Shown here in pieces: positions 204 through 28,627 of a stretch of 64,000 nucleotides of DNA (positions within the stretch are counted from its first letter, which is position 1; the number at the start of each line of letters is the position of its first letter). The notes under the pieces were generated by a model. The model searched no databases. It was not told the origin of the DNA and worked only from the letters and a program-made list of their open reading frames with translations. Origin of the DNA: a virus (lineage: Duplodnaviria > Caudoviricetes); the IMG/VR virus record IMGVR_UViG_3300033463_000032, positions 32,001 through 96,000 of that record, one strand, 5' to 3'. A program made the position numbers and the translations under genes.

Positions 204-509
204 ATGATTAGAATTTTGATTGAAGAACAAAATCATCCAGAACTAACATGTATTTCTTCTGTAGAGTATGAAGAAATAAAAGAGGATTTGTTAAAAGATG
301 CTCAAGCATTTTGTAATTATAATGGCTATTGGTGTGTTTGTGTTGCTATAAGAAAGTTTCCAAATTGGTATTTAGTTAATTTAGATACTGGATATCTTTT
401 TACTGCTAACTCTTTAGAAGAGTATAGACACACTTTAAAAGACTGGGGTTTTTCTGAAAATCTAGTACAGTCTGTATATGGAAAGCAAAATGATTTTGAA
501 AATAAATAA
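204..509 (+). CDS. hypothetical protein with MIRILIEE leader (putative internal head protein)
   Basis: ORF with SD AAGGA; N-terminal L-x-E leader shared with neighbours. Confidence 0.7.
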   Translation: MIRILIEEQNHPELTCISSVEYEEIKEDLLKDAQAFCNYNGYWCVCVAIRKFPNWYLVNLDTGYLFTANSLEEYRHTLKDWGFSENLVQSVYGKQNDFENK

Positions 510-528
510 TAAAGGAGAAACATAACAC

Positions 529-1413
529 ATGGATAGAGATGAACTTATTCGTATTGTAGAAGAATTTAAAGCAGATAAATACCCGGATGGTGTGTATGAA
601 ATCTATGCTGACTATAGGGATGAACTTTCTGATAAACAAGCATTAAAGATTATCAAATCTAAAGATCCTTCCACTACATTCTATGAAATTCTTGAAGAAA
701 GTTATCTATACACAGATTCTTATTATCAAGATGCTTTAGACAAAGAATTTGAAGATTGGTGTGAATATCATGATTATGATGTAACCATTGATGATCTTCG
801 TAGTGAAGATGTTTATCTGGATGAATACATTACATTTGAACTTCCATATGACCATTTCTTAGATCAGGAATATTACTGTAGATTGATCGTGGATAATGGT
901 GATGCTAATTATGATTTCACCAGAAATCCTAACCAGGATAATGGTTATCAGATTGAAAGTGGAGCAGGTATTATCTGGTTAGGTGAACAGTTAGGATATA
1001 CAGTAGAGCAGATGCAACAAGCATTAGATTCTGCTATTAATCCTGATGAATATCCGATAGATCATAAGTTAGGTAAGGATAAGTTCTTAGACAGTCTTAT
1101 TCAAGAAGCAGCAAATGCATTTGGTTGTCCGGCACTTACATTCCTTTGTAAGATGAGTCTTAAGGATTTGATTAAAGTTGCAGAAAACCATGCAGATGTA
1201 AAAGTAGAACTCAATGATATGGGTTGTGGTTTCTTTGATGGTTACAATGGTGGTGGCAGTGTTCTTGAACTTGAATGTGGTAAGAAAGATATCATCATAC
1301 CAAATGATAAGATCTATCAGCTTGTACCGGATATCAAATGTAATGGTATGTATTCGGTAGATGAAGTATATGGCCTTTGGAAAGGTGCATATGCTGATGC
1401 AGAAGCTATTTAA
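529..1413 (+). CDS. acidic hypothetical protein
   Basis: 294 aa ORF, SD AAAGGAG. Confidence 0.8.
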   Translation: MDRDELIRIVEEFKADKYPDGVYEIYADYRDELSDKQALKIIKSKDPSTTFYEILEESYLYTDSYYQDALDKEFEDWCEYHDYDVTIDDLRSEDVYLDEYITFELPYDHFLDQEYYCRLIVDNGDANYDFTRNPNQDNGYQIESGAGIIWLGEQLGYTVEQMQQALDSAINPDEYPIDHKLGKDKFLDSLIQEAANAFGCPALTFLCKMSLKDLIKVAENHADVKVELNDMGCGFFDGYNGGGSVLELECGKKDIIIPNDKIYQLVPDIKCNGMYSVDEVYGLWKGAYADAEAI

Positions 1414-1433
1414 TAAATAAAGGAGAAAACAGT

Positions 1434-1814
1434 ATGATTACGTTTTTAAAAGAATTTGTAAGTCCGGAAAGAGAAGAAGCTTGGAAACTTATAGATAAGT
1501 ATCAAGAACGTGAATTTGGTGAAGTTCTTTATTCAGAAGGTGCTAGTGCGATTCTAGTAATGGCACTTCCTTTTAATACATATTCTGAGTTTGATGATGA
1601 AATGTATGAAGGTACATGTAGTGCTATCATAGACCTTATGCATTACACATTAAATTTTACAGCTTATGATGCAGCAAAGGATAAAGATTTTTATGATTCT
1701 ATTCAATATAATAATCTTGAAGATATGATTAACAAACTCCTTAAGCCTATGGCAGATGGTAAAATCACAGAAGAAGATTTTAAAGATCTGTTAGAAACTC
1801 ACATTATAGTTTAA
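1434..1814 (+). CDS. hypothetical protein with MITFLKE leader
   Basis: ORF, SD AAAGGAG. Confidence 0.75.
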   Translation: MITFLKEFVSPEREEAWKLIDKYQEREFGEVLYSEGASAILVMALPFNTYSEFDDEMYEGTCSAIIDLMHYTLNFTAYDAAKDKDFYDSIQYNNLEDMINKLLKPMADGKITEEDFKDLLETHIIV

Positions 1815-1844
1815 TAGAAATTACCAAATACTATAAATAATAAA

Positions 1845-1885
1845 TAAAACCATATCTTAGTAATTTACATTAAGGTATGGTTTTA
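1845..1885 (+). terminator. hairpin, probable intrinsic terminator
   Basis: TAAAACCATATCTTA / TAAGGTATGGTTTTA inverted repeat after ORF stop. Confidence 0.55.
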
Positions 1886-1914
1886 ATAAAATAAAAGTAT
1901 TAGGAGTTATCTAT

Positions 1915-2001
1915 ATGTCAGAAGAAGAACTGGAAATGTTTGTTACCAGATATTTAGATGAGAAACATGAAGAAACTAAATCTGAAAATATGGAGAAATA
2001 A
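1915..2001 (+). CDS. 28 aa peptide MSEEELEMFVTRYLDEKHEETKSENMEK
   Basis: SD AGGAG at 1902-1906; below the ORF-track length cutoff. Confidence 0.45.
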   Translation: MSEEELEMFVTRYLDEKHEETKSENMEK

Positions 2002-2006
2002 ATAAG

Positions 2007-2369
2007 ATGGTTAAGATTAATTTGAATGAAGATATTAATTCGTATTCATATACAGGACCTGGATTTGCTGATGATAGAATTGACTTAGCAAGCTTTTCAA
2101 ATGATGATGGTTATGTAGAACTAGTTAATGATGGATTTGATTGCTATGTTACTTCTCAATCATTCTTAGGCGATTATGACTTTTATCGTGAATATAAAAT
2201 GTCTAATATTGATGCTGCAATTAAAGATTTTAATACAGAAGTAAAGCATTTTGGAGATACTAGATCTCTTACTCGTAGATTTATAGATCAAGTATTATCT
2301 GAATATGGTAAGTCATTAAGTGATTATGAACCTGGTGGTTTTTATGATAATTTAAGAAAGGGGAAATAA
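2007..2369 (+). CDS. hypothetical protein with MVKINLNE leader
   Basis: ORF, SD GGAG. Confidence 0.75.
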   Translation: MVKINLNEDINSYSYTGPGFADDRIDLASFSNDDGYVELVNDGFDCYVTSQSFLGDYDFYREYKMSNIDAAIKDFNTEVKHFGDTRSLTRRFIDQVLSEYGKSLSDYEPGGFYDNLRKGK

Positions 2370-2374
2370 AGATT

Positions 2375-2938
2375 ATGATTACTAAAATTCCATTAAATGA
2401 ATGGAATCGTGGAGATTTTAATGGTTTAGGAACTTCTAATGATCCTAATGATAAAAGAACTAATTACAAGTTTACAGATCTGTATATTCCGGGTAATGAT
2501 GCTGCACCAGATGAATTATTCCAACAAGTAATGAATAATTACATTACAGATCGTGGAGAGTTAGAATCCATTCAGAAGATTCTTGAAAGAAATGGATGGA
2601 AAGAAGAAGCCAAAATTGTTGGTTACTTTATTGATGAGATTGATGAAGAAAAACAGTATGGTGATGATTATTCCATTAGTAGAATGAAGATTGATATTGC
2701 TGATGATTATAAACATGCTGGGTTTAAAGATGCTACTTGGGGCAAGGTAGAATGGGGATTAGATTGTTACTTAGATGGTGATTATGTAATTATTGTTCTT
2801 ACTGATCCAGAAACCTGGGAATCTGATAGCGATAGAGTACCAGTTGAAGAATTTATGAATATGACTAGAGATGACTTTGATAGTTGGGTAGGTCAATTGC
2901 GTTTTTATGGTGATTTTGAACCAGAGGAAGAAGAATAA
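2375..2938 (+). CDS. acidic hypothetical protein with MITKIPLNE leader
   Basis: ORF, SD AAGGGG. Confidence 0.75.
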   Translation: MITKIPLNEWNRGDFNGLGTSNDPNDKRTNYKFTDLYIPGNDAAPDELFQQVMNNYITDRGELESIQKILERNGWKEEAKIVGYFIDEIDEEKQYGDDYSISRMKIDIADDYKHAGFKDATWGKVEWGLDCYLDGDYVIIVLTDPETWESDSDRVPVEEFMNMTRDDFDSWVGQLRFYGDFEPEEEE

Positions 2939-2956
2939 TTAAGGAGAAACTAGTTT

Positions 2957-3313
2957 ATGAATGATACTTATAATTCTGATCTTCAAGAAGCAATTGATTT
3001 AATAACTGCTTATTATGAAGTAGAGTTTGGGGAAGATGTTGATTATCCAAATGAATATTCTTCCGGTAGTGATAATGTTTATCCTCTAATGTATACATCT
3101 GTAGATGGTTCTGATGGATATGAGCATGATATCCAGGTAAGTGCAGATTTAGATGCTTCTGAAATGGTTTATTACGTTGATAATGCTATAGTTTATAGAC
3201 AGAGATATAAAAATCTTCGTGAAATGATCGATAAAGAATTATTTGATTTTGAAGAAAATGCAGATCAGATATTTGATTACTATTATGGTAAGTGTATTAG
3301 ATTTGTAGATTAA
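2957..3313 (+). CDS. acidic hypothetical protein
   Basis: ORF, SD AAGGAG. Confidence 0.75.
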   Translation: MNDTYNSDLQEAIDLITAYYEVEFGEDVDYPNEYSSGSDNVYPLMYTSVDGSDGYEHDIQVSADLDASEMVYYVDNAIVYRQRYKNLREMIDKELFDFEENADQIFDYYYGKCIRFVD

Positions 3314-3332
3314 TGATAGGAGAAATGTTTTT

Positions 3333-3761
3333 ATGTACCAGGAACATTATTTTGAAGTAACTAATTGTGCGTTTCGTACATATCTTTATGATGAAACTGC
3401 AAAAGATAATCGTGGAGATAGAGTAGCCTATTGGTACCCTACAGGTAAGAATAGAATAAGCCGTAATTCTTTTGTAGACTGTGTAAAACAATACATATAT
3501 GCTCCTTTTTCGGAAAATCCTACAGATTGGCAATTTGATAGCGAAAGGAATAAGATAGTGATTTCTGTATTATCTTCCCGTCCTTGTGGTTCATATGCCA
3601 GAGATGGTTTTGCTAAGAAACCTACTAAAAAGGAACTTGCTGATTTCGAAAAAGGTAAAGGTGAGTTGTATATAGTAGAATTTGAAGCAAATGTAGAAGA
3701 AATCTCTATCACTAGCATTACAGAAGAACTTGCCAGAGCAGAAGGTCTGGAAATAATATAA
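3333..3761 (+). CDS. hypothetical protein
   Basis: ORF, SD AGGAG. Confidence 0.75.
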   Translation: MYQEHYFEVTNCAFRTYLYDETAKDNRGDRVAYWYPTGKNRISRNSFVDCVKQYIYAPFSENPTDWQFDSERNKIVISVLSSRPCGSYARDGFAKKPTKKELADFEKGKGELYIVEFEANVEEISITSITEELARAEGLEII

Positions 3762-3770
3762 AAATAAACA

Positions 3771-3862
3771 AGCCTTAGATTGAGTTCTAAGGCTTTCCTT
3801 GTAGGAAATGACTGATTATATTAATTTCTATAAGGTAAGTCTTAGAAAGGCAAATAGAAAGG
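3771..3862. repeat. dispersed inverted-repeat element, copy A
   Basis: TTCTAAGGC (3785-3793), 45 bp, GTCTTAGAA (3839-3847); related copies at 9.5, 19.9, 28.5 and 45.8 kb. Confidence 0.6.
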
Positions 3863-3871
3863 AATTAGGTT

Positions 3872-4063
3872 ATGATTACTGTTCTTAATGAAAGTAATAT
3901 TAAGCATAACGGTGATGGTACAGTTTGGTGTACTTGTATAAAGTGTACTTATAATGAACCATTCAAGATGCGTAAACATAAAGATCCGGACTTTGGGAAT
4001 GTTGAATGGTATGCAGTATGTCCTAGATGTGGAACTGAATATACAGAATTGTTAGAAAGATGA
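3872..4063 (+). CDS. small zinc-ribbon protein with MITVLNES leader
   Basis: CIKC...CPRCG motif. Confidence 0.7.
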   Translation: MITVLNESNIKHNGDGTVWCTCIKCTYNEPFKMRKHKDPDFGNVEWYAVCPRCGTEYTELLER

Positions 4064-4075
4064 GGTAATAGAATT

Positions 4076-4336
4076 ATGGATGAACAGGCTGTAAAAAATA
4101 TAATTCGTGATACAATGGCATGGAAACTGACAGAAGAAACCATTAATGGTAAAAAAGTTTGGTGTTATTCCAGAGGTAATGGCGATTATATACCAGTTAA
4201 ATATATTTCCGAAGATGAAAGAGATATATTAATAAATAGTTGTTGGGATGATGTTGAACTTGAACTTGGTGAAATAGATGACATAGACCTTTTTGATGAT
4301 TGGTTTGATGATGTTTTCTATGATGAATTTATGTAA
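4076..4336 (+). CDS. acidic hypothetical protein
   Basis: ORF, SD GAGGT. Confidence 0.7.
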   Translation: MDEQAVKNIIRDTMAWKLTEETINGKKVWCYSRGNGDYIPVKYISEDERDILINSCWDDVELELGEIDDIDLFDDWFDDVFYDEFM

Positions 4337-4356
4337 TTCTTAAGAGGTAACTAATT

Positions 4357-4833
4357 ATGGCAAGAATACATCTTAATGAAGATTATGATGATTTATATGA
4401 TCTTGTGAAACAATCACAAGATGATGAAATATATGATATCACTCAAGGTAAAATAAAGGATTATATTGATGACCAGGGTAGGTATCTTGATGACGAAGAT
4501 ATCTTGGATGAAATCTTCTGGGAAGATATTGATGATGGTCTGGCATATGATATTGCTAATTCCTGGGTAGATAAACAAAAAGAAGATCCTACATTCATAG
4601 ATAGAATTTATGAAGAAGGTGCTAAGGATTTTGAGAAAATCTGGAAAGCCTTTTTAGATAAGTTTGATGAAATCACCATACAGGGTGAAGATTATGTGAG
4701 AATTGATTCCTTTAGCACATGGTTCTTAAATGGTGATGATTATGATGATCTTTTAGATAATAAAGATGAATTCATTAAGAAACAAATTCAAAGAGTGTTA
4801 GAAGATACTAAAGATCTTACAAAGTATATGTAA
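4357..4833 (+). CDS. very acidic hypothetical protein with MARIHLNE leader
   Basis: ORF, SD GAGGT. Confidence 0.75.
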   Translation: MARIHLNEDYDDLYDLVKQSQDDEIYDITQGKIKDYIDDQGRYLDDEDILDEIFWEDIDDGLAYDIANSWVDKQKEDPTFIDRIYEEGAKDFEKIWKAFLDKFDEITIQGEDYVRIDSFSTWFLNGDDYDDLLDNKDEFIKKQIQRVLEDTKDLTKYM

Positions 4834-4834
4834 T

Positions 4835-6259
4835 ATGGAAAAATATCTGGTAGAAAATTTAGAAATACATGACACATTAAATCCTAAATTGTGGGATTCT
4901 AATGATAAGCTTATTCCTGATGTAAGGGATAAGATATTAGAAATAGTGGAAGAGTTCAAGAAGAATGTTAAGGAAATGACTGATCTTGAACTTAATCCGC
5001 TTGATATTTATATTGTTGGGTCCAATGCATCATATAATTACACAAGTCATTCTGATGTAGATGTTCATATAGTAATTAATTTTGATACCATTGATGAAAA
5101 TTCCGGGTTAGTTCAATCACTTATGAATTTTCAAAAATCAAGTTTCAATAGTGGATATGACATATCTATTCATGGTATTGATGTAGAACTTTATGTTGAA
5201 GATCTTAATTCTACTGCTTTAAGTAATGGTGTATTTTCCGTTATGCAGGATCAATGGATTAAGAAACCGGAAAAGATAGAAGTAGAAGAAATTGATATCA
5301 ATGATGATGTTGATGAATGGAAAGAAAAAATAAATGCTGCTTTAGATAGTAAATCCGCAGATGATATTGGAAAAGTAATTGATGATCTTTATATTCTTCG
5401 TAAGAACTCCTTACTAAGTGGCGGTGAATTTAGTGAAGGTAATTTAGTTTTTAAATCTATACGAGATTTAGAGTTGTTGCAAGACCTTAAGGATTCGTAT
5501 ACAAAATTAAGATCCAAAGAACTTTCTCTTGAGAATTGGAAGAAGCCACATAAGGTTACTGAGGTTTTTTCTGCATATATAGGTCGTTATGTTGAATGTC
5601 CTAATTGTGGATATGATACTGTTTATATTGGAACTGTTTCAAATGATGGTGCGTTAGTTGTATGTGATGAATGTGGTACAGAATTTGAACCATCATTAAT
5701 TGTGAATGATCAAGGTAAGACAGAGTTAAAGTTATTATCTTTAGAAAAGAAAGGAGTATCAAAAGGTATGAAGATAAATCTTACCGAAAGTGTAAATGAT
5801 TTGTGGTTCAATTCTATTGAAAGAGAAGAAGAAGCTATACCAGATGCAATTCAATATGGTGTATCTGATAGTAAGATTGATAGAATGATTAGTACTTATG
5901 ATAATGTTGTAAGACTTCTTAAGGCTAATAGATCAGAAGTTGTATTTACTACCATGTATAACATAGATGATATAGTAGCACCTGATTTCCTTAGAAACTT
6001 TAAACCAGTTAAGACTATTCAGAAATACAACTTAACATTAAGAAAAGATGATAAAGGAAATCAAATTGTTACAGAACCATCTTATGGTACTATGACACTT
6101 TATTTTGCTAGTGAAGATATTGCTAAAGATATTATTAGTCAATATGAATTTGACTGGGATAATTATGATGATGAATATACACCTAGTTCCACTTATGGAG
6201 ATTATAGCCCTAGTGATCCCTGGAACGCACCTGGAATGTCAAAACAGGACTTTATTTAA
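4835..6259 (+). CDS. Pol-beta-superfamily nucleotidyltransferase fused to a zinc ribbon and a C-terminal module
   Basis: IYIVGSNASYNYTSHSDVDVHIV (GS...DxD) and downstream VELY; CPNCG...CDECG; internal MKINLTES at 5768. Confidence 0.75.
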   Translation: MEKYLVENLEIHDTLNPKLWDSNDKLIPDVRDKILEIVEEFKKNVKEMTDLELNPLDIYIVGSNASYNYTSHSDVDVHIVINFDTIDENSGLVQSLMNFQKSSFNSGYDISIHGIDVELYVEDLNSTALSNGVFSVMQDQWIKKPEKIEVEEIDINDDVDEWKEKINAALDSKSADDIGKVIDDLYILRKNSLLSGGEFSEGNLVFKSIRDLELLQDLKDSYTKLRSKELSLENWKKPHKVTEVFSAYIGRYVECPNCGYDTVYIGTVSNDGALVVCDECGTEFEPSLIVNDQGKTELKLLSLEKKGVSKGMKINLTESVNDLWFNSIEREEEAIPDAIQYGVSDSKIDRMISTYDNVVRLLKANRSEVVFTTMYNIDDIVAPDFLRNFKPVKTIQKYNLTLRKDDKGNQIVTEPSYGTMTLYFASEDIAKDIISQYEFDWDNYDDEYTPSSTYGDYSPSDPWNAPGMSKQDFI

Positions 6260-6293
6260 TAAATAATAAATTTAATTATAAGGAGTTTTTATT

Positions 6294-7031
6294 ATGGGTT
6301 ACACTAACTATTGGAAAAGAACTGATAAAGAGTATGATAGTGATTTTGTCGAACTTGTAAAAGATGTATATGCAGATTGCAAGAACAAGGGAATTACTTT
6401 AGGTGATAACTGGGGAGAAGGTGAACCAGTTGCTGATCTTTTGGAGATTGCTTTTAATGGTGACGCTTCTAAAGATTTAGATCATGAAACATTCTATCTT
6501 CCTAATACAGATAATGAGTATTTTAAAGAGGGTTTTAATTTCTGTAAAACAGCAGCTAAACCTTATGACTATGCAGTAAAGGAAGTACTTAGACTTGCTG
6601 AGAAGTATGGATATGTTACTGATGTATCTGATGATGGTGAAGTAGATATTATTTCTGATGCAGAGTATTTAGGAGAATCATATTAGACAGAGAGTAAAAG
6701 TCTTAAAGAGTGGAATGATTGGAATATAGAAGCAATGACTGGTTATAAACCAAAGACTACATTCTATATGGATTTTTCTATTGCAGACAGATTTGGTGCT
6801 AATGCAATTAAAGATACATACAATAGAGCTATGAGAGAGTGGATAGATGATATTGAGTATGTAACTGAATTGTATATGGTCCTTAACTGGAAGATTTGGG
6901 AGCATTATGAAGATAACCCTGAGTATGGTGAACTTTATCAAACTCTTTGGGATAAGTGTGAAAGAGAGATATCTAAGCATTATAGAAATGATAAGGAAGC
7001 AATGAATTATTTTTATAAGACAACAGATTAA
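6294..7031 (+). CDS. two-domain hypothetical protein interrupted by an in-frame TAG (6684-6686); otherwise two ORFs 6294-6686 and 6735-7031
   Basis: ...GESY*TESKSLKEWNDWNIEAMTGYKP... is one continuous frame. Confidence 0.55.
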
Positions 7032-7043
7032 GTGAGGTAGCAA

Positions 7044-7469
7044 ATGATTACTGTATTAGAAGCTACAAAGAAACCAGATTTCTTATCAGACATAAATGGT
7101 AGAACTTTTTGGAGAAGATATGCACCAGATATGCAGGAGTTTTCTAGGAAGTTCAAAAGTTGGGTAAAGAAGATCGCAAAAGAGAATGGTTGGGAAGTAG
7201 TAAATTATGGTTATTCTGTAGACCATTTTTCCGGGTTCTTTAAATGTGGTGATACATATATATATTTTGCATATGATCTTCCTTGGGAAGAACCAGTAGA
7301 TGTAACATTGCCTGGAGCTCATTATGGTGTTCTTTATAGAACTGCTAAAGATGATAAAGATTATACAGGTGGTCATAATTGTTTTAGCAGCTTAGAAGAT
7401 TTCCCGGAAGATGTAGCATTTGAAATGAACAGGTTACTTAGAATAAAAGAAAGGAATAATACACTATGA
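7044..7469 (+). CDS. hypothetical protein with MITVLE leader
   Basis: ORF, SD GAGGT. Confidence 0.75.
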   Translation: MITVLEATKKPDFLSDINGRTFWRRYAPDMQEFSRKFKSWVKKIAKENGWEVVNYGYSVDHFSGFFKCGDTYIYFAYDLPWEEPVDVTLPGAHYGVLYRTAKDDKDYTGGHNCFSSLEDFPEDVAFEMNRLLRIKERNNTL

Positions 7470-8485
7470 TTACTATTCTTAATGAAACAACAAGAAAAGA
7501 AATAGATCAAAGAAATAAACAGATGTGGAATGATATCAGACAATCATTGAAAGATCATGGTGATTCTGATTGGAATAATGCTATTGGTTATATGAATAGA
7601 CTTCCTAAAGAGAAGTCAGATGAGTTTTATAGGTACAGCAGAGAAACTGCTTGTATTGATATGTTGCACTCTATTCTTACTTATTCAGATCCAGAAACCT
7701 GGACAGTAGATAATATTCTTAAAGATCATTATATGCAACAGTATATTAAAGAGTTGGGAAAGGATACTGTAGCGAATCTTATTCAACAAGAAATTGCCGA
7801 GTATCAAGATGCTACTATTGATTATAATTCTTATACAGATAGTGAAGGCCTTTCTTATAACTCTGTAAGATTTAGGGATGATAAATCATATAAAAGAGAA
7901 TCAGTACATACAGATTTAGTAGACCAATTTTTTGCAGATGTTCAAGATGTTGTAGATTATTTTAGATATCACAATAAGAATCTTAATAAGACACAAGATT
8001 ATCTTTTATACGATTTGGAAGATGCTTTAGATAGTAGATCAACATTAGCAGCGAGAGAAGCAATTGCTAATTTGAAGAATCACTCTAAAGGTATGAATAA
8101 CACGCAAAGTTCTATGATTGAAGAATTATATGGAGAGTTATTTGCTAGTGGTGAATACAAAGATATTGGTAGACCATCTTATGATGAATCATATAAGAGA
8201 GAATCAGTTGATGGTAAGCAAACATTAGCAGATTGGATATCTAACCCTAGAAATCAGAGAAGATATGGTAATGATGAAATAATGGTTGTTTGTATGAACC
8301 CTTATTTAGATGATCCTGATGATTGTCCGGGAGTACTGTTTGATGGTACATTTGATGAACTTAAGAACGGTACAGGTGATAATTATATTTCTGATAGTTA
8401 TGATATTTGGGTGGTAACAGGTACTACTTATAAGAGATATGGTGGTACTGATTTCCTTGAAATTAGTGTTGATTCTATTCATTAA
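7466..8485 (+). CDS. modular protein with MITILNE leader and two SYKRES linkers
   Basis: ORF; internal near-repeat at 7884-7905 and 8187-8208. Confidence 0.75.
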   Translation: MITILNETTRKEIDQRNKQMWNDIRQSLKDHGDSDWNNAIGYMNRLPKEKSDEFYRYSRETACIDMLHSILTYSDPETWTVDNILKDHYMQQYIKELGKDTVANLIQQEIAEYQDATIDYNSYTDSEGLSYNSVRFRDDKSYKRESVHTDLVDQFFADVQDVVDYFRYHNKNLNKTQDYLLYDLEDALDSRSTLAAREAIANLKNHSKGMNNTQSSMIEELYGELFASGEYKDIGRPSYDESYKRESVDGKQTLADWISNPRNQRRYGNDEIMVVCMNPYLDDPDDCPGVLFDGTFDELKNGTGDNYISDSYDIWVVTGTTYKRYGGTDFLEISVDSIH

Positions 8486-8507
8486 AAAGTAAGTGAGGTA
8501 GTGAGAT

Positions 8508-9419
8508 ATGATAACTAATTTAAATGAATCTGCTAACTATGATACAAAGCTAATTGCTAAGTGGCTTAAAGCAAAGTTTGATGATGAAGCATTTGGTACA
8601 GCAAAAACAATGCATGGTACATCAGATGCAGAGAGATATATGAACAGAAATAATCTTGTATATAATTCTGCTACAAAGATAGTTGGTGTATATCAAGGTA
8701 GTGATTGGAGAAATCCTACACCAATTTATAAAGTAATTCCTCAGTATGGTTCTAAGAAAGTACAAGGTACTTATGCACCTAAACTTCCTAAAATCATACC
8801 TATTGATGAGTACAATTCTATGTATGGTGAATCATATGTGAAAGAATCTTCACATACAGATTTAGTTAATAAGATATATTCAGTAATGGCAAATTATGAA
8901 TATGGTTATGATCCTGATATGTCTGATATAAATGCTATGCTACAAGAATTAGTCATAAATAATGGAATAGATGATATTAAGTCTAATGCATTTAAAAAGG
9001 CTTGGATTTCAGCTCATAATAAAGCAGAAAGAAAAGTTTGGGGCAGATCAGGTGATGCTATGAAATATGACGATCTTACTCCTGGTGAACAAGATGCTAT
9101 AGATAATTTTGATGAAGATTATTGGAAAAGATGGCGTAAACACTCAAAAACTGAATCAAAGAGATTGGTTAAAGAATCTTTTGATGATGATTGGACAGTA
9201 TCAACAACTTCTCAATTTTATGATGGTAGAAAACAAACACTTAGAAAGTTTACTAGAGAACTAGATGGTCATAAAATTCTTGTATGTCCTAAATACAATG
9301 AAAAATTTGATCAGATAGACTGGACTGTTTTCTTAGATGGTGAAAAGAAAGAAGTTTTTGAAACATCATATGATGCAATAGACTTTGTAGATTATGAATT
9401 AGCAGACTTGTATCTTTAA
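8508..9419 (+). CDS. modular protein with MITNLNES leader and ESYVKES / LVKES linkers
   Basis: ORF, SD GAGGT. Confidence 0.75.
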   Translation: MITNLNESANYDTKLIAKWLKAKFDDEAFGTAKTMHGTSDAERYMNRNNLVYNSATKIVGVYQGSDWRNPTPIYKVIPQYGSKKVQGTYAPKLPKIIPIDEYNSMYGESYVKESSHTDLVNKIYSVMANYEYGYDPDMSDINAMLQELVINNGIDDIKSNAFKKAWISAHNKAERKVWGRSGDAMKYDDLTPGEQDAIDNFDEDYWKRWRKHSKTESKRLVKESFDDDWTVSTTSQFYDGRKQTLRKFTRELDGHKILVCPKYNEKFDQIDWTVFLDGEKKEVFETSYDAIDFVDYELADLYL

Positions 9420-9429
9420 CAGTAAATAA

Positions 9430-9463
9430 AAGGCATTTGTACTATATGGTGTAAATGCCTTTA
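9430..9463 (+). terminator. hairpin, probable terminator
   Basis: AAGGCATTTGTAC / GTGTAAATGCCTT. Confidence 0.5.
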
Positions 9464-9548
9464 ATCTATGTTCTAAGGCTTTTATTAAAAAGATAGGAAA
9501 AGTATCATAAGAAGAATTAGAAAGCATTAGAAACGAAAATAGAGGGGT
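9458..9548. repeat. dispersed inverted-repeat element, copy B
   Basis: TTCTAAGGC (9471-9479), 44 bp, GCATTAGAAACGAAA (9524-9538). Confidence 0.6.
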
Positions 9549-11792: not shown

Positions 11793-13361
11793 TTGAGTAT
11801 ATTATTAACAGAAAAAGTAGGTTGTCTTGAAAATGCTGGTTCTCCAATGAATCCTAATTGTTTAGGCCATCTTGCAGGAATTGGAGGAGACTTAAGAAAA
11901 CCTACTAGAAATGGTAGATTATACAATCAAGAACTTTGGGAAAAGGTAATGGCTTCTGATGATTTCAAGGAAATGATGGAATCCAAAACTTGTTTCTGCG
12001 AAGCTAATCATCCAACTGACCGTATTGATACGGACATTCGGGAAGTGTGTGCAGTTCTTACTAATATGGAAATTAGAAAGGATGAGGGAATTCTTTGGGT
12101 AGAGTTTGATATTCTTGATACACCACAAGGAAGAATTCTTAAATCTCTTGTAGACTATGGTTGTAAGATTGGAGTTTCTTCCAGAGGACTTGGTGATGAA
12201 ATTCAAAGAAATGGTGAAATAATCATAGATCCTGATACATATAGTTATTATGGTCATGATATGGTAGTACAACCGGCAGTTAAATCAGCAAGACCGGATG
12301 TAGTTGAATCAAAGGCCAGAGCAAAGGTAACAGATGTATTTAGGAAAGAAATAGAAAATGCTACAACTCAATCTGAATTAGTAGGATTGAAGAGATTAGC
12401 AGAATCGGTAAATGTACCAAATCTGGATTTAATAACTGAATCCATTGATAATAAACTTTCTAGTGGTTCTTTAAGTGGAAATAATATTTCTGAACACTTA
12501 GAAGATGATTTGGGTAGACTTGCAGAAGAGAATGAACAACTCAAAACTCAGGTTGAAAATCTTAAAAAGGCTAATAATATTGGTGCTAAGAGAAGTAAGC
12601 AATTAACTGAGACATTTGAAAGTGAAGCTAAAACTGCAAGAAGAACATTGAGAAAACTTGAAGTTCAAACAGAAAGATTAGAAAGAACTAATCAGGATTT
12701 GAATGACGAGTTGGATCAGAAGAACATTCAGTTAGAAAGGCTTGAAAGAGTTAATAAAAGAAAAACTGAATCATTAGAGCAACAACTTGAAGATGCATTG
12801 AAAAAGATTTCTTCTCTTGAAAGAAAAGTCAAATCACTTAATGAAAGTTATGATGCTGTTATTAGTGAGAATGATGATCTTAAAGATGAGATCACAAGGT
12901 TATCTGAATCTTGTGATAGGAGTAATTCAAGGGTTATTGAATTGGAGAATGAAATTTCAAATAAATCTAATGAGTTGAATTCTCTTTATGAAGAGAATGA
13001 TCTGCTTAATGGTGAGTTTGAAAAAGTTAATTCAAAACAAGCATTAACTGAAAACAAAGTACAAGATGTATCTAATGAACTTAATGAATCAAAGAAGCAA
13101 ATTTCTGAGGTTCTTGTTAAGTATCTTGATGCTAAATGCGTGTCAGAAGGAATTGACAGGAATAGAGCATCATCAATGTTGAATGGTAGATATACTACTA
13201 AAGACATTGATATGGTGGTAGAAAAGTTGGCAGATGAAAAGAAGAGGTTGAATAAACTTCCTATTGCTCTTAATGGTAGTATTTCTGCTAAACTTGAATC
13301 CTATTCCGGTTTAAACCCGGAAGATGCTCAAACAATGAAATTCCTTACTGGTTTTAAATAA
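11793..13361 (+). CDS. prohead protease (T4 gp21-like) fused to a long coiled-coil scaffold
   Basis: NGRLY, EANHP, LDTPQG, GVSSRGLG motifs; about 300 aa coiled-coil C-terminus; immediately upstream of the capsid gene. Confidence 0.9.
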   Translation: MSILLTEKVGCLENAGSPMNPNCLGHLAGIGGDLRKPTRNGRLYNQELWEKVMASDDFKEMMESKTCFCEANHPTDRIDTDIREVCAVLTNMEIRKDEGILWVEFDILDTPQGRILKSLVDYGCKIGVSSRGLGDEIQRNGEIIIDPDTYSYYGHDMVVQPAVKSARPDVVESKARAKVTDVFRKEIENATTQSELVGLKRLAESVNVPNLDLITESIDNKLSSGSLSGNNISEHLEDDLGRLAEENEQLKTQVENLKKANNIGAKRSKQLTETFESEAKTARRTLRKLEVQTERLERTNQDLNDELDQKNIQLERLERVNKRKTESLEQQLEDALKKISSLERKVKSLNESYDAVISENDDLKDEITRLSESCDRSNSRVIELENEISNKSNELNSLYEENDLLNGEFEKVNSKQALTENKVQDVSNELNESKKQISEVLVKYLDAKCVSEGIDRNRASSMLNGRYTTKDIDMVVEKLADEKKRLNKLPIALNGSISAKLESYSGLNPEDAQTMKFLTGFK

Positions 13362-13388: not shown

Positions 13389-16300
13389 ATGGCTATCGCA
13401 AGTATGATGAATCAAAAGTCACAGTACCTCATTGGTAAGTATGCCAAGAGGATTAAGATGGTAGAGAGTGTTCAGGGTAAGCCTCTCTCCTATGAAAAGA
13501 AAGTAGTTCTTGCTAACTGCTTAGAGAATACAGCAGATCGTATTAAGGCATTTGAAGCTACTAACCCTGGTCAGATCGGTAAACAACTTGCCGCATAATA
13601 TGGTAACATATTATGGAAAACCTAGTGAATTGCTGGAAACTCCTAATATTTAATATCTCGGTGTTAGGACAATCAGCAGCTTTATATCAATAATAAGGTA
13701 GGACAGTAGGTTCGAAACTATTTCTTACTACCCTTAATGGTAAGATTACTACCTCATTATATAGATTAAATCTTTAAGGGAGATTTAAGATATGTATGGA
13801 TATATTTATTTAATAACCAATAAAGTAAATGGTAAAAAGTACATAGGACAAAGAACAGCGGATTTTAAAACTGATTCTAAATACTTAGGATCTGGAACTC
13901 TTATTAAGAAAGCAGTTGCTAAGTATGGTACAGAAAGTTTTAATAAAGAACTTCTTGAAGAATGTAATTCAAAAGAAGAATTAGATGATAAAGAAAAGTT
14001 CTGGATTTTAAAATTTAATGCTATAGAAGATGAATCATTTTATAATCTTGCAAATGGAGCTAATGGTTCTACTAAAGGTTCTAAAAGATCAGAAGAAACT
14101 AAACGTAAGCAATCTGAGAAAGCAAAACTTAGAAGTATAGATGAAGATACTAGAAAGAAAATATCTAAGACAATATCTTCACAATGTTGGGTTAATGATG
14201 GTCATATAGAAACTAAGGCAACAAAAGAAACATTAGATGAATACTTAAATAAAGGATTTGTTTTAGGTAGATTACCATTTAGTGAAGATACTAAACATAA
14301 CATGAGTGTTTCATTTACCAGAAGAACTCATACAGAAGAAACTAAGCAACATATAAGTAAAATTACTTCTGGTGATCATAATCCTTTTTATGGTAAGAAA
14401 CATTCTGAAATTAGTAAAAAGAAAATGTCTGAAAGAGCTAAAGGTAGAAAAGCATCTACACAGACAAAACAAATACTATCAAGTCAAAGACTTGGAAGAA
14501 AATGGATTAACAATGGTAAAGAAAATAAATTTGTTAAACCAGATGATTTAGAAAAGTATTTACTTGATGGTTGGTTATTAGGAATATATCATTGATATGA
14601 AGTTCAACGACTATCGAAAGCATAATGTAAGAGAAAGACTTACATGAAGAAGCGAGTAGAGTAAGGTTCAAGTGAACTCAAGTGCTAGGGTTCTTAATAA
14701 TGGTAACAGTTATTAAGAATGTGATATAGTCTGAACTCTATAGTAATATAGAGAAAATAAACGGAAACGGTTTATTTGTAACATAATTGCAGTATAAGAG
14801 ATATGCATTGGACTTAGTTACGGCTACATTGCCGAATCTTATTGCATTTGATCTTTATGCAGTACAGCCTATGGATAATAGGATCGGTAAACAATCTGCC
14901 GCTTAAGTTAGTGATAACTTAAGAAAACTCGGTGAAAACAGGGGAAACCTTATATTTGAGGTAAGATATAAGACAATCCTGTGCGAAGTCTTACAATTAA
15001 ATATTACTTATTACTTTATGATATAATCTAAGGTAATAAGGTAGGACAGTAGGTTCGAAACTATTTCTTACTACCTCTTATTTAGTGAGATTACTACCTT
15101 GTTAAATATAAACTTAATCTTAAGAGGAGATTAAAAGTATGTATGGTTATATTTATATGACTACTGATATTACCAATAATAAAAAATATATTGGTAAGCA
15201 CAAAGCTAGTGAATTTACTACTAAGTATGTAGGTTCTGGAAAGTGTCTATTAAGAGCAATAAAACAACACGGAAAAGAAAATTTTAAAGTTGTTATGTTA
15301 GAAGCTTGTAATACTTTAGAAGAACTTAATGAAAAGGAAAAATTCTATATTGCTAAATATGATGCATTGAACTCTAAAGATTTTTATAATATACACCCTG
15401 GCGGTGATGGTGGTGACATTGCATTGTATTTATCAAAATCTAAACTGACTCATATAAGAAAAGAACATTCTAAATATATTTTAGATAGACTTAAAACTGA
15501 TGAGGAATTTCATAGTAGATTTGCTGGTGCTAAGAAAGGTCACAAGTGTTATCAAGGCACTAAGGACAAAATAGGTTCTGCTCAAAAGAATTATTGGAGC
15601 AGAACACCGTATGAAATTAAACATGAAAGACTTTCTAGGAGTGCAACTACTAGATGTACTGGTAGAATCTGGATAACTAATGAAGTTATTGATAAATTTA
15701 TAAAACCAGAACATTTAGATGAGTTTTTAGCAGTAGGCTTTAGAATAGGTAGGAAGTTTCAAAAACGTAATAGACCTTGTAAGAAACGTTAAACGACTAT
15801 CGAAAACACTATCAATGAGAAAGACATTGAATAGGAAGTGAGTAGAGTACATTCTAAGTAGAATGGAAGTGCCGAGCATCTTATTAGTGGTAAAAGTTAA
15901 TAAGATGATGATATAGTCTGAACTCTATGGTGACATAGAGAGTTATATTGGAAACGAATATAACGTAACATAAATTGATGATCAATTACCTTGATTACAC
16001 ATACCAGTCAAATAAGGGTGATGTAGTAAATGGTCAGGTATTTAATGGAGCTCTTAAGGGTTCTTTCTCTGATAAGGATTACACATCTGCATTTGTAAAT
16101 GGTGAGAAGTTTGTAGGTGATGGTTCTAACAAGGTATTTAATCTTGCTTGGACACCGGTTGACACAAGAGTAACAACCCAGATTGGTGAGTCTGTTCTTC
16201 CGATCATTACAGTTGGTGGATCTCCGGTTACTGTAGAGATTGATAATGGCCAGACAAATCCTGGTGCATTAGTATCTGCTAGTGGTGTAGTTACATTTGA

Positions 16301-19062
16301 TACTGCTCCGAGCAATAATGCAGAAGTAGTTGTTAAGTATTGGTTCTTGAATGAAGATGTAAGATCTAATGGTTTTGGTGCATTTGGTGGTCCTAACAAT
16401 GGCAATCAGGCTATTGACGGAGCTAGAGGTGCTGCTGGATTTACAAATGTTCCGGAAATGGGCCTTAAGATGCAGACAGTACCTGTAGAGGCTAAGGCTA
16501 GAACACTTAGAGCATATTGGGCCTTTGATGCTCAGTATGAGCTTTCTAAGGAATATGGCCAGTCTATTGAGGATCTGTTAGCTACACAGGCTTCTGGTGA
16601 AATTGCCCATAGACGTTTTGTGGCATAATATATAAATAAGGTTAATAGTGTGATAGAATAAAAAAAAGAAACAAAACATTCAACATTTTAAATTTGATTG
16701 TTTTGTGGGACAGTAGGTTCGAAACTATTTCTACATTCCTTAACAATGTAGATTACCACAATTCAAATATAAAAATTAGTTAAGGTGATTTTTATGGCAA
16801 AGAAAAATTCTAAATGTTACACAGATGGAAAACAAAACATCTATATAAGTGAAGGGATGGAAATACCGGAAGGTTTTTATAAAGGCTTTGCTTATAAATC
16901 AGAAAGTACATTAAAGAATAGGGTTCAAAAAACTGCTAAGACAAAATTAGACCGTTATGGATCTGAAACTTATAATAATTCTGAAAAGAGTAAGCAAACG
17001 TGTTTAACCAGATATGGTACAGAAAATCCTTTAAAGTCTGAACAAATAAAAGATAAGATCAGACAAACAAACTTAGATAGATATGGTGTTGAAAATCCAT
17101 TTCAAAACAAAGAAGTTAAAACCAAAGTAAAGCAAACATTGTTAGAAAAGTATGGTGTTGAAAACATAGCACAAACAGAAAGTCACAAACAAAAGGTAAG
17201 TGATTTCTGGAAAAACATTTCTGAGGATCGTTTGGTTGAAATTTCTGATAAGAAAAGAAAAACTTGTTTAGAAAAATATGGTAAACAATCTGTAGGGCAA
17301 GTACCGGAGTTCCGGGAAAAGATAGAAAAGACTTGCATAGAAAGATATGGTGTACCGACATATTTAATGACAGAAGAAGTCAGATTAACAACATCTAATG
17401 ATTCTGGTCCTAATCAAGATTTTGAAAACAAACTTAAAGAAGTTGGTTTAGCTTTTAGCAGAGAATATCATATTGATAGAAAGAGTTATGATTTTCTTTG
17501 TAGTGATACATTAATAGAGATCAATCCATATGCAACACATAATTCAACATGGGGCATATTTGGTAGAGATCCTTTAGATAAGAGATATCATTACGAAAAA
17601 ACAAGACTTGCAAAAAGAAATGGATTTAGATGTATAAATATTTGGGACTGGGATGATAAAGATAAAGTATTATCTTTGATAACACCTAAATCAAAAATAT
17701 ATGCCAGAAAGTGTAAGATTTTAGAAATATCTTCTGAGGCCAGTAAAGATTATCTTAACACCTGGCATTTACAAGGTAATGTTAATTCTGATATTAGGGT
17801 TGCATTAATCTATGAAGATCAAATAGTATCATTAATGACATTTGGTAAGAGTAGATACAATAAAAAGTATCAATATGAATTGTTACGTTATTGTTCAAGT
17901 AAATGTGTAATTGGTGGATCAGAAAAACTTTTTAAGTATTTTTTGAAAACCTATAAGCCGGAAAGTATTATAAGTTATTGTGATCTTTCTAAGTTTACAG
18001 GAACTGTATATGGTAAGTTAGGATTTACTTACAAAACTTATACAATAGGTAAGCATTGGTATAATCCTAAAACACAAACACATATTACAGATAACTTATT
18101 AAGGCAAAGAGGTTTTGATCAACTGCTAGGAAAAACTTATGGATGTTTTGGAAAAGGAACAAGTAATGAACAGTTAATGCTACAACATGGTTTCGTTGAA
18201 ATTTATGATTGTGGTCAAGCTACATATACTTGGAGCATTAAATAACCTTATGAAATTATTATGAAAACCTCGTTAATTGCTGGAAACTCTTAAAGACTTA
18301 TCACCTTTAAGACAATCAGCAACTATATATCGATTATGATATGTAGCTCAGAGACTATCGAAAGCATAATGTAAGAGAAAGACTTACATGAAGAAGCGAG
18401 TAGAGTAAGGTTCAAGTGAACTTGAAATGCGAGGGTTCTTATTAATGGTAACAGTTAATGAGAACGTGATATAGTCCGATCTTTATGGTGACATAAAGAA
18501 TTATGATGGAAACGATCATAATGTAACATAAATGGAAATTGATAATGAGCTTACAATCGATCTTCTTACGACCGCTATTGGCAATACAAATCCTGAGCTT
18601 TATATGAGATCTTGGTCTAAGGTACAGCCTACGGGTGTATCTCTTGCAGATCACTATGATGGTTTCATTGAGAAGATCATTGATTGTTCTAATGCTATTA
18701 ACGCAGCAACAAGAAAAGTATCTGCAAACTTTATGGTATGTGGACTTGGAGTTGCTACTGTTGTTAAGGTAATGAGAACATTCCAGGCTTCTGGTAACAT
18801 TGCAAATGGTCCTTACTATCTTGGAACTCTTGGTGATATCAAGGTTTATGTAAACCCTGATTATCCGGCAGATTATTTTGTAATGGGTTATAAGGGTACT
18901 AACATGTTTGATGCTGGTGCTTTCTATCTCCCTTATATGCCTGTAACATCAACAGATACGATCATGACTGCTGATTTCCGTGGTGAGAAGGCTTGGGCAA
19001 CAATGTATGCTAAGAAGATTCTCAATAAGGATATGTATGTTGCTGGTCAGATTACTAAGTAA
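13389..19062 (+). CDS. major capsid protein (T4 gp23-like), spliced join(13389..13580,14790..14888,15978..16610,18535..19062), 483 aa
   Basis: Exons join in frame: ...NPGQIG|QYKRYALDLVTATLPNLIAFDLYAVQPMDNRIG|MINYLDYTY...ASGEIAH|EIDNELT...; PNLIAFD..VQPM, VEAKARTLRA, EIxxEI and GYKG...DAGAFYLPY are gp23 hallmarks. Confidence 0.92.
13690..13791 (+). ncRNA. three-way-junction / kissing-loop RNA element upstream of intron HEG, copy 1
   Basis: Invariant GGACAGTAGGTTCGAAACTATTTCT (13701-13725); loop CCCTTAA (13731-13737) complementary to RBS-hairpin loop TTAAGGG (13774-13780). Confidence 0.8.
13792..14595 (+). CDS. intron-encoded GIY-YIG homing endonuclease (NUMOD3)
   Basis: YGYIY...KKYIGQR, YLGSG, FYNL; NPFYGKKHSE. 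Confidence 0.9.
   Translation: MYGYIYLITNKVNGKKYIGQRTADFKTDSKYLGSGTLIKKAVAKYGTESFNKELLEECNSKEELDDKEKFWILKFNAIEDESFYNLANGANGSTKGSKRSEETKRKQSEKAKLRSIDEDTRKKISKTISSQCWVNDGHIETKATKETLDEYLNKGFVLGRLPFSEDTKHNMSVSFTRRTHTEETKQHISKITSGDHNPFYGKKHSEISKKKMSERAKGRKASTQTKQILSSQRLGRKWINNGKENKFVKPDDLEKYLLDGWLLGIYH
15019..15027 (+). promoter_or_regulatory. extended -10 promoter (TGaTATAAT) for the intron-2 HEG
   Basis: TGnTATAAT 7-8 nt upstream of the RNA element. Confidence 0.5.
15035..15138 (+). ncRNA. three-way-junction / kissing-loop RNA element, copy 2
   Basis: Invariant core 15044-15068; loop CCTCTTA (15074-15080) complementary to TAAGAGG (15121-15127). Confidence 0.8.
15139..15792 (+). CDS. intron-encoded GIY-YIG homing endonuclease
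   Basis: YGYIY...KKYIGKH, YVGSG, FYNI. Confidence 0.9.
   Translation: MYGYIYMTTDITNNKKYIGKHKASEFTTKYVGSGKCLLRAIKQHGKENFKVVMLEACNTLEELNEKEKFYIAKYDALNSKDFYNIHPGGDGGDIALYLSKSKLTHIRKEHSKYILDRLKTDEEFHSRFAGAKKGHKCYQGTKDKIGSAQKNYWSRTPYEIKHERLSRSATTRCTGRIWITNEVIDKFIKPEHLDEFLAVGFRIGRKFQKRNRPCKKR
16631..16659 (+). promoter_or_regulatory. internal promoter TATAAA-17-(TGa)TAGAAT for the intron-3 HEG
   Basis: Same hexamers and spacing as the minus-strand promoter at 58528-58583. Confidence 0.5.
16703..16793 (+). ncRNA. three-way-junction / kissing-loop RNA element, copy 3
   Basis: Invariant core 16708-16732; loop CCTTAAC (16738-16744) complementary to GTTAAGG (16779-16785). Confidence 0.8.
16794..18245 (+). 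CDS. intron-encoded Hef/Vsr-like (PD-(D/E)xK) endonuclease with N-terminal T-x-L-x-(R/K)YG repeats and a C-terminal GNAT-like domain
   Basis: Six TxLx(R/K)YG-type repeats; YDF...IEINP..H; IYARKC...HLQG...ELLRYC...SYCDL. Confidence 0.7.
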   Translation: MAKKNSKCYTDGKQNIYISEGMEIPEGFYKGFAYKSESTLKNRVQKTAKTKLDRYGSETYNNSEKSKQTCLTRYGTENPLKSEQIKDKIRQTNLDRYGVENPFQNKEVKTKVKQTLLEKYGVENIAQTESHKQKVSDFWKNISEDRLVEISDKKRKTCLEKYGKQSVGQVPEFREKIEKTCIERYGVPTYLMTEEVRLTTSNDSGPNQDFENKLKEVGLAFSREYHIDRKSYDFLCSDTLIEINPYATHNSTWGIFGRDPLDKRYHYEKTRLAKRNGFRCINIWDWDDKDKVLSLITPKSKIYARKCKILEISSEASKDYLNTWHLQGNVNSDIRVALIYEDQIVSLMTFGKSRYNKKYQYELLRYCSSKCVIGGSEKLFKYFLKTYKPESIISYCDLSKFTGTVYGKLGFTYKTYTIGKHWYNPKTQTHITDNLLRQRGFDQLLGKTYGCFGKGTSNEQLMLQHGFVEIYDCGQATYTWSIK

Positions 19063-23290: not shown

Positions 23291-23839
23291 ATGGGATATT
23301 TAACTGAAAGAGACGTAACATTATATAGAAGTTGGTTCAAGGAAATGTCTCGTCTTTAGGTGCTTCGTGGAATACCTGTTCTTTATCAATATCCTATTGA
23401 ACTTGATCCAACCATTCATTCAGAAATGCTTACAGAATTATCTGAACCAATGGAAATGGATATTATCTTTGATAGTAATCCTAAGACTTCCACATTAAAG
23501 AAGTTACACTGGGTAAGTGAATTTCCGGATGATAAACCATATATTGCTATATTACCATTTGATGCACCTAATCTTTGTACTGAATGTGTACTGTCAATTA
23601 AACCAATTGATTCATTAAATAATCAGTACAGAAAGTTTAAGATAACATCAATAAATACTATTTTGGAATATCCTGATAGTTGGACCTGTGTTATAGCACC
23701 TATCTTTGAAACTTTGGATAATACACCTAAGAATGACTATTCTGATAGTAACTTCAATTACATAGATGAAAGTAAGACTACTAATCCAGATGAGTATTCT
23801 TACATTAATCCTAAAAAGAGTACAACCAATGGAAATTAA
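23291..23839 (+). CDS. putative head-closure/neck protein with an in-frame TAG at 23357-23359
   Basis: SD GAGGTG 8 nt before ATG 23291; MGYLTERD...EMSRL*VLRGIPVLYQYP is one frame; function from synteny only. Confidence 0.55.
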
Positions 23840-28518: not shown

Positions 28519-28607
28519 GCACCAAATACCTCTCAGAACTCTTTTGTTTAATTCAGAATGAAATTATACTAAGAAACATTTGAAGTGTCTTAGAATTGAT
28601 TCTAGAT
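28519..28607. repeat. dispersed inverted-repeat element, copy D (left arm degenerate)
   Basis: GTGTCTTAGAATTGA (28585-28599) is the exact reverse complement of 19927-19941. Confidence 0.5.
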
Positions 28608-28627
28608 AGGTTATAGGAGAAGTTACA

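Follow-up and report, generated by a model that had tools for sequence, protein, structure and literature searches.

Tagged gene array between the portal and protease genes

The investigated stretch of DNA, in the following called the window, comprised 64,000 nucleotides of the phage record IMGVR_UViG_3300033463_000032, i.e. bases 32001-96000 of a 128,410-bp phage genome; a window coordinate is the genome coordinate minus 32000. Directly after the portal gene (genome 18685-20511, 608 amino acids (aa), phrog_213) begins an array of genes, many of which start with a similar short peptide, here called the tag. The array extends over approximately 21 kb, from genome 20567 to genome 41419 (window 9419), towards the gene of a prohead protease, from which 2.4 kb separate its end. 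The right-hand 9.4 kb are inside the window and the other 11.4 kb lie further left. A preliminary description of the window had quoted ten open reading frame (ORF) starts of this kind, and all ten were found as quoted (204, 1434, 2007, 2375, 3872, 4357, 4835, 7044, 7466 and 8508), as were an internal M-K-I-N-L-T-E-S at 5768 and the protease start (TTG, 11793). The leaders at 3872 and 7466 are identical at 21/22 nt, again as described.

A strict tag pattern, ^M[ILV].[ILV].{1,3}E, was fitted by 15 of the 41 array genes versus 1 of the 165 genes elsewhere in the genome (Fisher p = 4e-11), and by 7 of 674 internal Met positions. The enrichment that the preliminary description had called for, with equal frequency elsewhere as the case against it, was present within this genome. 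Its statement that the leader is missing from minus-strand early genes also held, none of the minus-strand genes of the genome fitting the pattern. With looser tag forms included, about 24 of 45 array genes were tagged. The first loose patterns tried were dropped as too permissive, since they gave 14-18 matches outside the array, the tail sheath among them. This gene is a 557-aa ORF at 25147-26820, taken as tail sheath by its size, its position and an N-terminal likeness to ORFs in the loci L014 and L016. It begins with M-P-R-V-I-I-N-E, an N-terminus that relatives share, and its match to the loose patterns is most plausibly a false positive.

The tagged genes of the window, read as putative cargo genes, were the following, with the multi-domain ones given further below:

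204..509, plus strand: 101 aa, tag M-I-R-I-L-I-E at the ORF start
1434..1814, plus strand: 126 aa, tag M-I-T-F-L-K-E at the ORF start
2007..2369, plus strand: 120 aa, 8-residue tag ending L-N-E at the ORF start
2375..2938, plus strand: 187 aa, 9-residue tag ending L-N-E at the ORF start
3872..4063, plus strand: 63 aa, tag M-I-T-V-L-N-E, with a hairpin and a TTAGAA...TAGAAAGG box 5′ of it
4357..4833, plus strand: 158 aa, 8-residue tag ending L-N-E at the ORF start
7044..7469, plus strand: 141 aa, 6-residue tag M-I-T-V-L-E at the ORF start

The tags are 6-9 residues long with a varying spacing from Met to Glu, and their common core is a Met followed by hydrophobic residues (phi) in the second and fourth positions and by a Glu at one of positions 6-9. 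They fall into two subclasses: M-I-T-phi-L-N/K-E, where P3 is Leu, and M-[LI]-[KR]-V-x-[IL]-E, where P2 is Ile or Leu. The propeptide ending (L/I)-x-E, on which the preliminary description had relied, is found in the first subclass; the second carries Ile or Leu at P2 instead. Synonymous codon use in the tags followed the genome-wide proportions (Leu codons CTT 0.40, TTA 0.35 and TTG 0.20, compared with genome-wide values of 0.35, 0.36 and 0.14), and pairs of codons for the same residue differed in 36% of cases, indicating that the unit of selection is the peptide and not the RNA. A conserved operator, an antisense target and a recombination box were also considered; the codon statistics and the varying length from Met to Glu argue against all three.

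All-against-all BLASTP within the array revealed one related pair; a weaker relation of the 7466 and 8508 proteins was recognized by eye. The ORFs had previously been called otherwise unrelated, which is correct for most of them, but the 7466 and 8508 proteins have two domains in common, and a 141-aa array gene is paralogous to the first domain of 7466. In Pfam and PHROGs most passengers were without a named family, and for the first array gene a protein atlas offered no more than weak leads. An ArdA antirestriction homologue without a tag lies inside the array (L019:13090-13866, genome 25090-25866; PF07275, E = 2.5e-37) and is conserved in the relative G001, which is described below. A leaderless protein of approximately 158 aa (L019:14595-15071, genome 26595-27071), without Pfam or PHROG match, occupies the portal-protease interval of G001, L015-L017, Listeria phage LIS04 and Streptococcus phage GXN1. 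From this distribution it is a candidate for a constant core or scaffold partner.

Multi-domain proteins and their linkers

Multi-domain proteins, also read as putative cargo, are encoded by three of the tagged genes, in which tag-like sites recur between the domains (↓ marks the predicted point of cleavage):

4835..6259, plus strand: 474 aa, tag M-E-K-Y-L-V-E, Pol-beta-type nucleotidyltransferase, zinc ribbon and third domain (Pfam, PHROG, AlphaFold)
5768..5788, plus strand: internal tag copy M-K-I-N-L-T-E (residues 312-318 of the 4835 protein), with its own GGAG upstream, in a disordered linker before the third domain
7466..8485, plus strand: three-domain protein, 339 aa, tag M-I-T-I-L-N-E; three confident AlphaFold domains, each also found alone or elsewhere
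7886..7903, plus strand: interdomain linker S-Y-K-R-E↓S (residues 141-146 of the 7466 protein), placed by the end of the paralogue and a low-confidence block of the model
8189..8206, plus strand: second interdomain linker S-Y-K-R-E↓S (residues 242-247 of the 7466 protein)
8508..9419, plus strand: three-domain protein, 303 aa, tag M-I-T-N-L-N-E, linkers S-Y-V-K-E↓S (8832-8849) and R-L-V-K-E↓S (9162-9179)

The linker motif of the 7466 and 8508 proteins occurred four times in array proteins and not once in the other 32,315 residues of the proteome. The stand-alone 141-aa paralogue of the first 7466 module stops exactly at the first linker. AlphaFold models of the 4835 and 7466 proteins, built on homologue alignments, showed flanking domains with confidence values (pLDDT) of 80-97, while values below 50 were obtained for residues 1-7 and 304-316 of 4835 and for residues 1-5 and 235-247 of 7466, in which the block 141-150 averaged 55. 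The structure prediction of passengers suggested earlier thus gave confident domains and disordered tags, but fold searches left most passengers unnamed. Foldseek found no matches for the 7466 model, the middle module of which is a four-helix bundle with generic VIA-align matches only (Z 8 or less). For the 4835 model Foldseek gave an identity no finer than Pol-beta-type nucleotidyltransferase, the fold matches being CD-NTases and aminoglycoside nucleotidyltransferases (ANT), which are too generic for naming a substrate.

An exhaustive profile search showed that each 7466 module is also found alone or within proteins of up to 1,200 residues. Among about 45 distant homologues, L-x-E↓T-[TS] mostly stood directly before module 1, whether the module was N-terminal or internal, and homologues of it were fused to the polyvalent-protein domains LPD11 and YodL. 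In long homologues (>=450 residues) the motif [LIVMY]-x-E-[ST] was found 181 times, against 99 in shuffled sequences, a 1.8-fold excess. Paralogues carrying tags of different subclasses align starting from the residue after Glu. In another phage lineage (proteins P0263, P0266, P0277, P0288, P0302, P0303, P0376 and P0384; locus L028, 5709-10411) the same three modules carry the N-terminal tag M-K-[RK]-Y-[IV]-[KR]-[SA] and linkers of the form D-[IV]-K-A-[SA]↓T-E-P-N, which suggests a second tag and cleavage system of other specificity. As judged from these alignments and models, the tag is a detachable linear motif, and its placement as a linker at domain borders is the strongest evidence for the reading given below.

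The nucleotidyltransferase protein showed the same arrangement. Its residue E7 was invariant in a 63-sequence alignment, and in 120 homologues the nucleotidyltransferase domain was preceded by M-phi-L-x-E when N-terminal and by phi-phi-x-E when other domains were fused in front. Homologues among the deposited phage records searched were found in T4-like cyanophages, Caulobacter phage Cr30, Maribacter phages and Lak megaphages. The G001 orthologue is a protein of 564 aa with an extra N-terminal domain, which is followed by an internal L-I-T-E↓K aligning with the start tag of 4835; the internal tag at 5768 aligns with M-R-R-K-L-E↓S of the same protein. Its C-terminal domain, preceded by Y-E-V-E↓A, aligns with a separate 71-aa array gene (tag M-I-E-V-I-N-E↓A) from residue 7 of the latter.

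Protease and major capsid protein

The genes downstream of the array encode the enzyme and the capsid protein to which the tags were compared:

11793..13361, plus strand: prohead protease (S77, gp21 type) fused to a coiled-coil scaffold, 522 aa, TTG start, N-terminus M-S-I-L-L-T-E (PF03420, phrog_207)
13389..13598, plus strand: first exon of a gp23-like major capsid gene, encoding a propeptide with four conserved phi-E sites

The protease ORF matched PF03420 with E = 8e-9 and phrog_207 with 7e-32. H73, S129/S130 and D156 were invariant in an alignment of 20 homologues, in which the Glu sites V-V-E172↓S, I-T-E216↓S and L-T-E420↓N were conserved as well. About 110 of 120 protease homologues, down to 30% identity, begin with M-x(1-10)-[LIV]-L-[TIVN]-E, and many have a second site, Y-I-K-E↓S or L-E-Y-T-E, approximately 10 residues later. 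The tag of the array resembles this N-terminus of the phage's own protease-scaffold protein, which in turn aligns by eye with L-L-I-E-9 of T4 gp21. The latter, ending at residue 9, fits the gp21 cleavage logo and has been considered a possible targeting propeptide (PMC9026906). Four phi-E sites in the N-terminal 55 residues of the capsid protein were conserved in ten phages, the last of them directly before A-T-N-P-G. Both site forms of the tags, with the hydrophobic residue at P3 or at P2, are also present in the capsid propeptide and in the protease.

The gp23-like capsid gene is in pieces (13389-18245), and its interruptions, probably introns, hold two GIY-YIG-type ORFs (13792 and 15139) and a third ORF (16785). 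A further such endonuclease ORF was observed at 10625, just 5′ of the protease gene. The large terminase ORF (L019:3421-6513, 1,030 aa) has internal HNH-endonuclease matches, which may represent an intein or an inserted endonuclease.

Tagged genes in related phages

Megablast of the first 12 kb of the window against 50,697 phage records gave no match, and a viral-contig scan with protein P0330 gave none either. A viral-contig scan with the protease alone returned distant loci only; closer protease relatives were found when viral contigs were searched with an alignment query. The relative G001 is complete (127 kb), with a portal 64% and a protease 60% identical to those of the window phage. The strict pattern is matched by 12 of the 47 genes directly behind its portal and by none of the 20 that come next; the tags are mostly M-I-R-V-phi-E, with Glu at position 6. 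When the 38 kb following the G001 portal were read, homologues were found for only about 10 of the 45 array genes. More distant phages with such a protease (L016, L017 and L018) have tagged genes of their own beside the protease or downstream of the capsid gene; in L017 and L018 these stand among structural genes downstream of the capsid gene, just 5′ of a conserved gene of that module. Three genes starting with M-R-L-[VI]-[RK]-L-[TN]-E were found in Streptococcus phage GXN1.

Regulatory signals and neighbouring features

A box TTAGAA-N7-9-TAGARRGG was observed approximately 30 nt upstream of five plus-strand genes, i.e. three tagged genes, the gene at 9557 and an 872-aa gene at 28628 in the tail-gene region. 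Together with the hairpin that closes the array, the sites are:

3842-3862, 9527-9547 and 28590-28610 in the window, genome 26324 and 29450, plus strand: 5′ box
9429..9462, plus strand: 15-bp hairpin at the end of the array, with a similar one behind the portal gene (genome 20519-20554, L019:8519-8554)

At several of these genes (genome 29480, window 3872 and 9557) a hairpin and a -10-like hexamer lie immediately upstream, and the box may mark a class of promoter or leader. Neither of the two 15-bp hairpins bounding the array has a clear T tract, and sigma-70-like promoters were neither enriched nor excluded. Box and bounding hairpins are weak hints at a co-regulation of the array with structural genes. 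An antisense RNA unit at approximately genome 106,300 was checked for pairing with the 5′ box of the array, and no pairing was found.

In the structural module, an in-frame TAG (23357-23359), located in a 9-nt insert, breaks up a conserved gene at 23291-23839, the product of which has about 180-190 aa in relatives. The TAG has identical CTT codons on either side and GTG directly after it; relatives read R-L-R-G where the window phage has R-L-stop-V-L-R-G. A short ribosome hop or a stop-restart could account for this insert.

Interpretation of the tags and alternative explanations

The array tags are likely to be short propeptides which are cut by the prohead protease and mark cargo loaded into the head, some of it multi-domain. 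The array would accordingly be an expanded set of genes for head-internal cargo. During prohead assembly, the tag would dock the protein onto the scaffold and protease core, the protease would cut after Glu (phi-x-E or phi-phi-E) and also at sites of the same type in the linkers of multi-domain cargo, and the freed, folded domains would stay in the head and leave with the DNA. The information for docking may reside in the segment M-I-[TRK]-[VI], which the N-terminal tags conserve and the internal linkers do not; this would parallel the division of the T4 tag into targeting and processing positions (PMC9026906). Injection and anti-defence roles of the passengers, which had been part of the preliminary description, are put forward with less assurance than cleavage and head loading. 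The earlier idea of a portable tag, matched to a gp21-type protease and set on diverse passengers, is well supported by comparison with the protease N-terminus, the capsid propeptide, the linkers at domain borders and the modelled disorder.

Several observations weigh against this interpretation, the main doubts being the timing of expression and the charge of the proteins. Nearly all array proteins are acidic (pI 4-5.5), unlike the basic T4 proteins IPII and IPIII; acidic proteins are less comfortable beside packed DNA and are typical of early host-takeover proteins. The ArdA class is usually expressed early, and in its composition the array as a whole resembles a region for early host takeover. 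Small genes of early appearance stand between the G001 array and the protease, and position alone is no proof of late expression. Furthermore, six to seven residues are short for a targeting signal, and the cleavage site is loose, with the hydrophobic residue at P3 in one subclass and at P2 in the other. The tail sheath N-terminus matches the loose pattern by chance, and the conserved residues before a domain in families of orthologues could in principle belong to the fold.

The most probable of the alternatives, although we regard it as unlikely, is the following: the array might be an unpackaged early region for host takeover and anti-defence, its N-terminal peptide serving another protease, a chaperone, protein stability or translation control. 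Small acidic orphan proteins occurring together with ArdA, the early-type genes after the G001 array, the lack of a direct sign of late transcription and the indifferent distribution of sigma-70-like promoters are consistent with such a region. Neither the early genes on the minus strand nor the replication region on the plus strand, however, show the tag. The constraint on the peptide rather than the RNA also counts against this alternative, and neither translation-start nor N-terminal signals can apply to the motif where it stands inside proteins at domain borders. Its match to the N-terminus of the head protease and to the sites of the capsid propeptide is a further argument against it, as are the tagged genes among the structural genes of L017 and L018 and the 5′ box which three tagged genes have in common with gene 9557 and the tail-region gene 28628.

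Less probable still is that the tagged proteins are transient accessories of the prohead core or scaffold, which like T4 gp67 and gp68 are loaded, cut and then broken down or expelled. The array occupies the same genomic slot as T4 genes 67 and 68, the 6-residue propeptides are similar, and the array proteins are strongly acidic, as is gp67. About 24 different proteins with a fast turnover nevertheless far exceed any structural need, and the slot between portal and protease is already filled by the conserved leaderless protein of about 158 aa in all relatives seen. Several of the tagged proteins are confidently folded and multi-domain, the nucleotidyltransferase included, and would be too large for capsid pores; moreover, passenger domains recur in proteins of the polyvalent type. 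That the resemblance of the tags is due to chance, or to a first beta-strand common to many small folds, is very improbable: other genes of the genome do start with M-K-phi-phi-phi-D/E strands and the tail sheath fits the loose pattern, but the strict pattern is highly enriched, the tags are modelled as disordered and not as sheet, paralogues of different subclasses align only behind the Glu, and the same domain carries a quite different tag in the other lineage.

Implications

If the tags act like those of T4, approximately one-sixth of the genome would be given to proteins carried into the next host. For most of these passengers no fold or family is known, and a relative with a 64%-identical portal carries almost entirely different ones, a pattern in keeping with an arms race against host defences. 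The tag would then provide a sequence-only way of listing packaged proteins in uncultured gut and rumen phages, and a loading tag of 6-7 residues would be a compact handle for bringing foreign proteins into phage heads. A wider generalization is possible but somewhat doubtful, namely that in many uncultured phages the head-protease site of each lineage serves both as N-terminal loading tag and as linker of delivered multi-domain proteins, and that domains move between lineages by an exchange of tags. In that case the injected proteome could be read from the sequence.

Comparison with known systems

A capsid targeting sequence on the internal proteins of T4 was reportedly described by Mullaney and Black in 1996. 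In T4 this sequence is carried by IPI, IPII and IPIII and is removed by gp21 (reviewed in PMC9026906 and PMC3012670). The array has in common with the T4 internal protein system a protease of the gp21 family, a short propeptide ending in hydrophobic-x-Glu on unrelated, fast-evolving proteins, and the presumed logic of loading, clipping and delivery. It differs in that the tag has 6-9 residues instead of 10-19, about 24 tagged genes stand in one array instead of three to five in T4, the passengers are acidic instead of basic, the protease is fused to the scaffold, and the system is known here from sequence alone. The preliminary description had referred to the T4 targeting sequence of about 10 residues; the tag of the array has 6-9 and, by inspection, bears no likeness to the 10-residue sequence of IPIII. 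More similar to it are the short propeptides of gp67, gp68 and Alt.

These three T4 proteins are the nearest match in tag length, shape and gene position. The T4 layout, with portal, gp67 (M-E-G-L-I-E), gp68 (M-L-L-I-P-E), gp21, gp22 and gp23, represents the same arrangement on a small scale, and from Alt, an ADP-ribosyltransferase injected along with the DNA, six residues are removed at I-T-E-6 (PMC5694885). In contrast, sequence homology of the passengers was not detected in Pfam and PHROG scans, and two genes occupy the slot in T4, against about 45 here. No Pfam or PHROG family naming gp67 or gp68 was matched in the general scans, which did not include a direct profile comparison.

Many head-internal proteins of the giant phages phiKZ and SPN3US, among them ejection and inner-body proteins, are likewise cut after Glu in a three-residue motif, there by S80 proteases; one protein can have several sites, and paralogues share identical N-termini (PMC5694885, PMC7411985). 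In these phages, however, the motif is S/A/G-x-E, the propeptides are mostly longer than 100 residues, and mass spectrometry has demonstrated both cleavage and location in the virion.

Polyvalent proteins (Iyer et al. 2017, PMC5512222) are also multi-domain; their genes neighbour virion genes, and their delivery along with the DNA is predicted. The 4835, 7466 and 8508 proteins, each with three modules and encoded in the interval from portal to protease, show this combination of multiple modules and virion-gene neighbourhood, and a possible further likeness lies in the fusion of one passenger domain to LPD11 and YodL in its homologues and in the ArdA homologue, which is a separate gene of the array. 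No window protein matched an LPD family. Most array domains are, by contrast, encoded by separate genes, each with its own tag. A built-in zincin-like peptidase was proposed for polyvalent proteins (PMC5512222), whereas the linkers found here look like prohead-protease sites, and Pfam scans of 29 array ORFs and 10 large homologues revealed no peptidase domain. The linkers thus suggest that prohead proteases, and not only built-in peptidases, process multi-domain delivered proteins. While the principle is already known from T4, the scale (some 24 tags within a single array), the brevity of the tag and the phage lineage, with its scaffold-fused protease, are new; so too, as far as the alignments indicate, are the apparent use of the site as an interdomain linker in proteins of the polyvalent type and the occurrence of the same passengers behind a different tag in another lineage.

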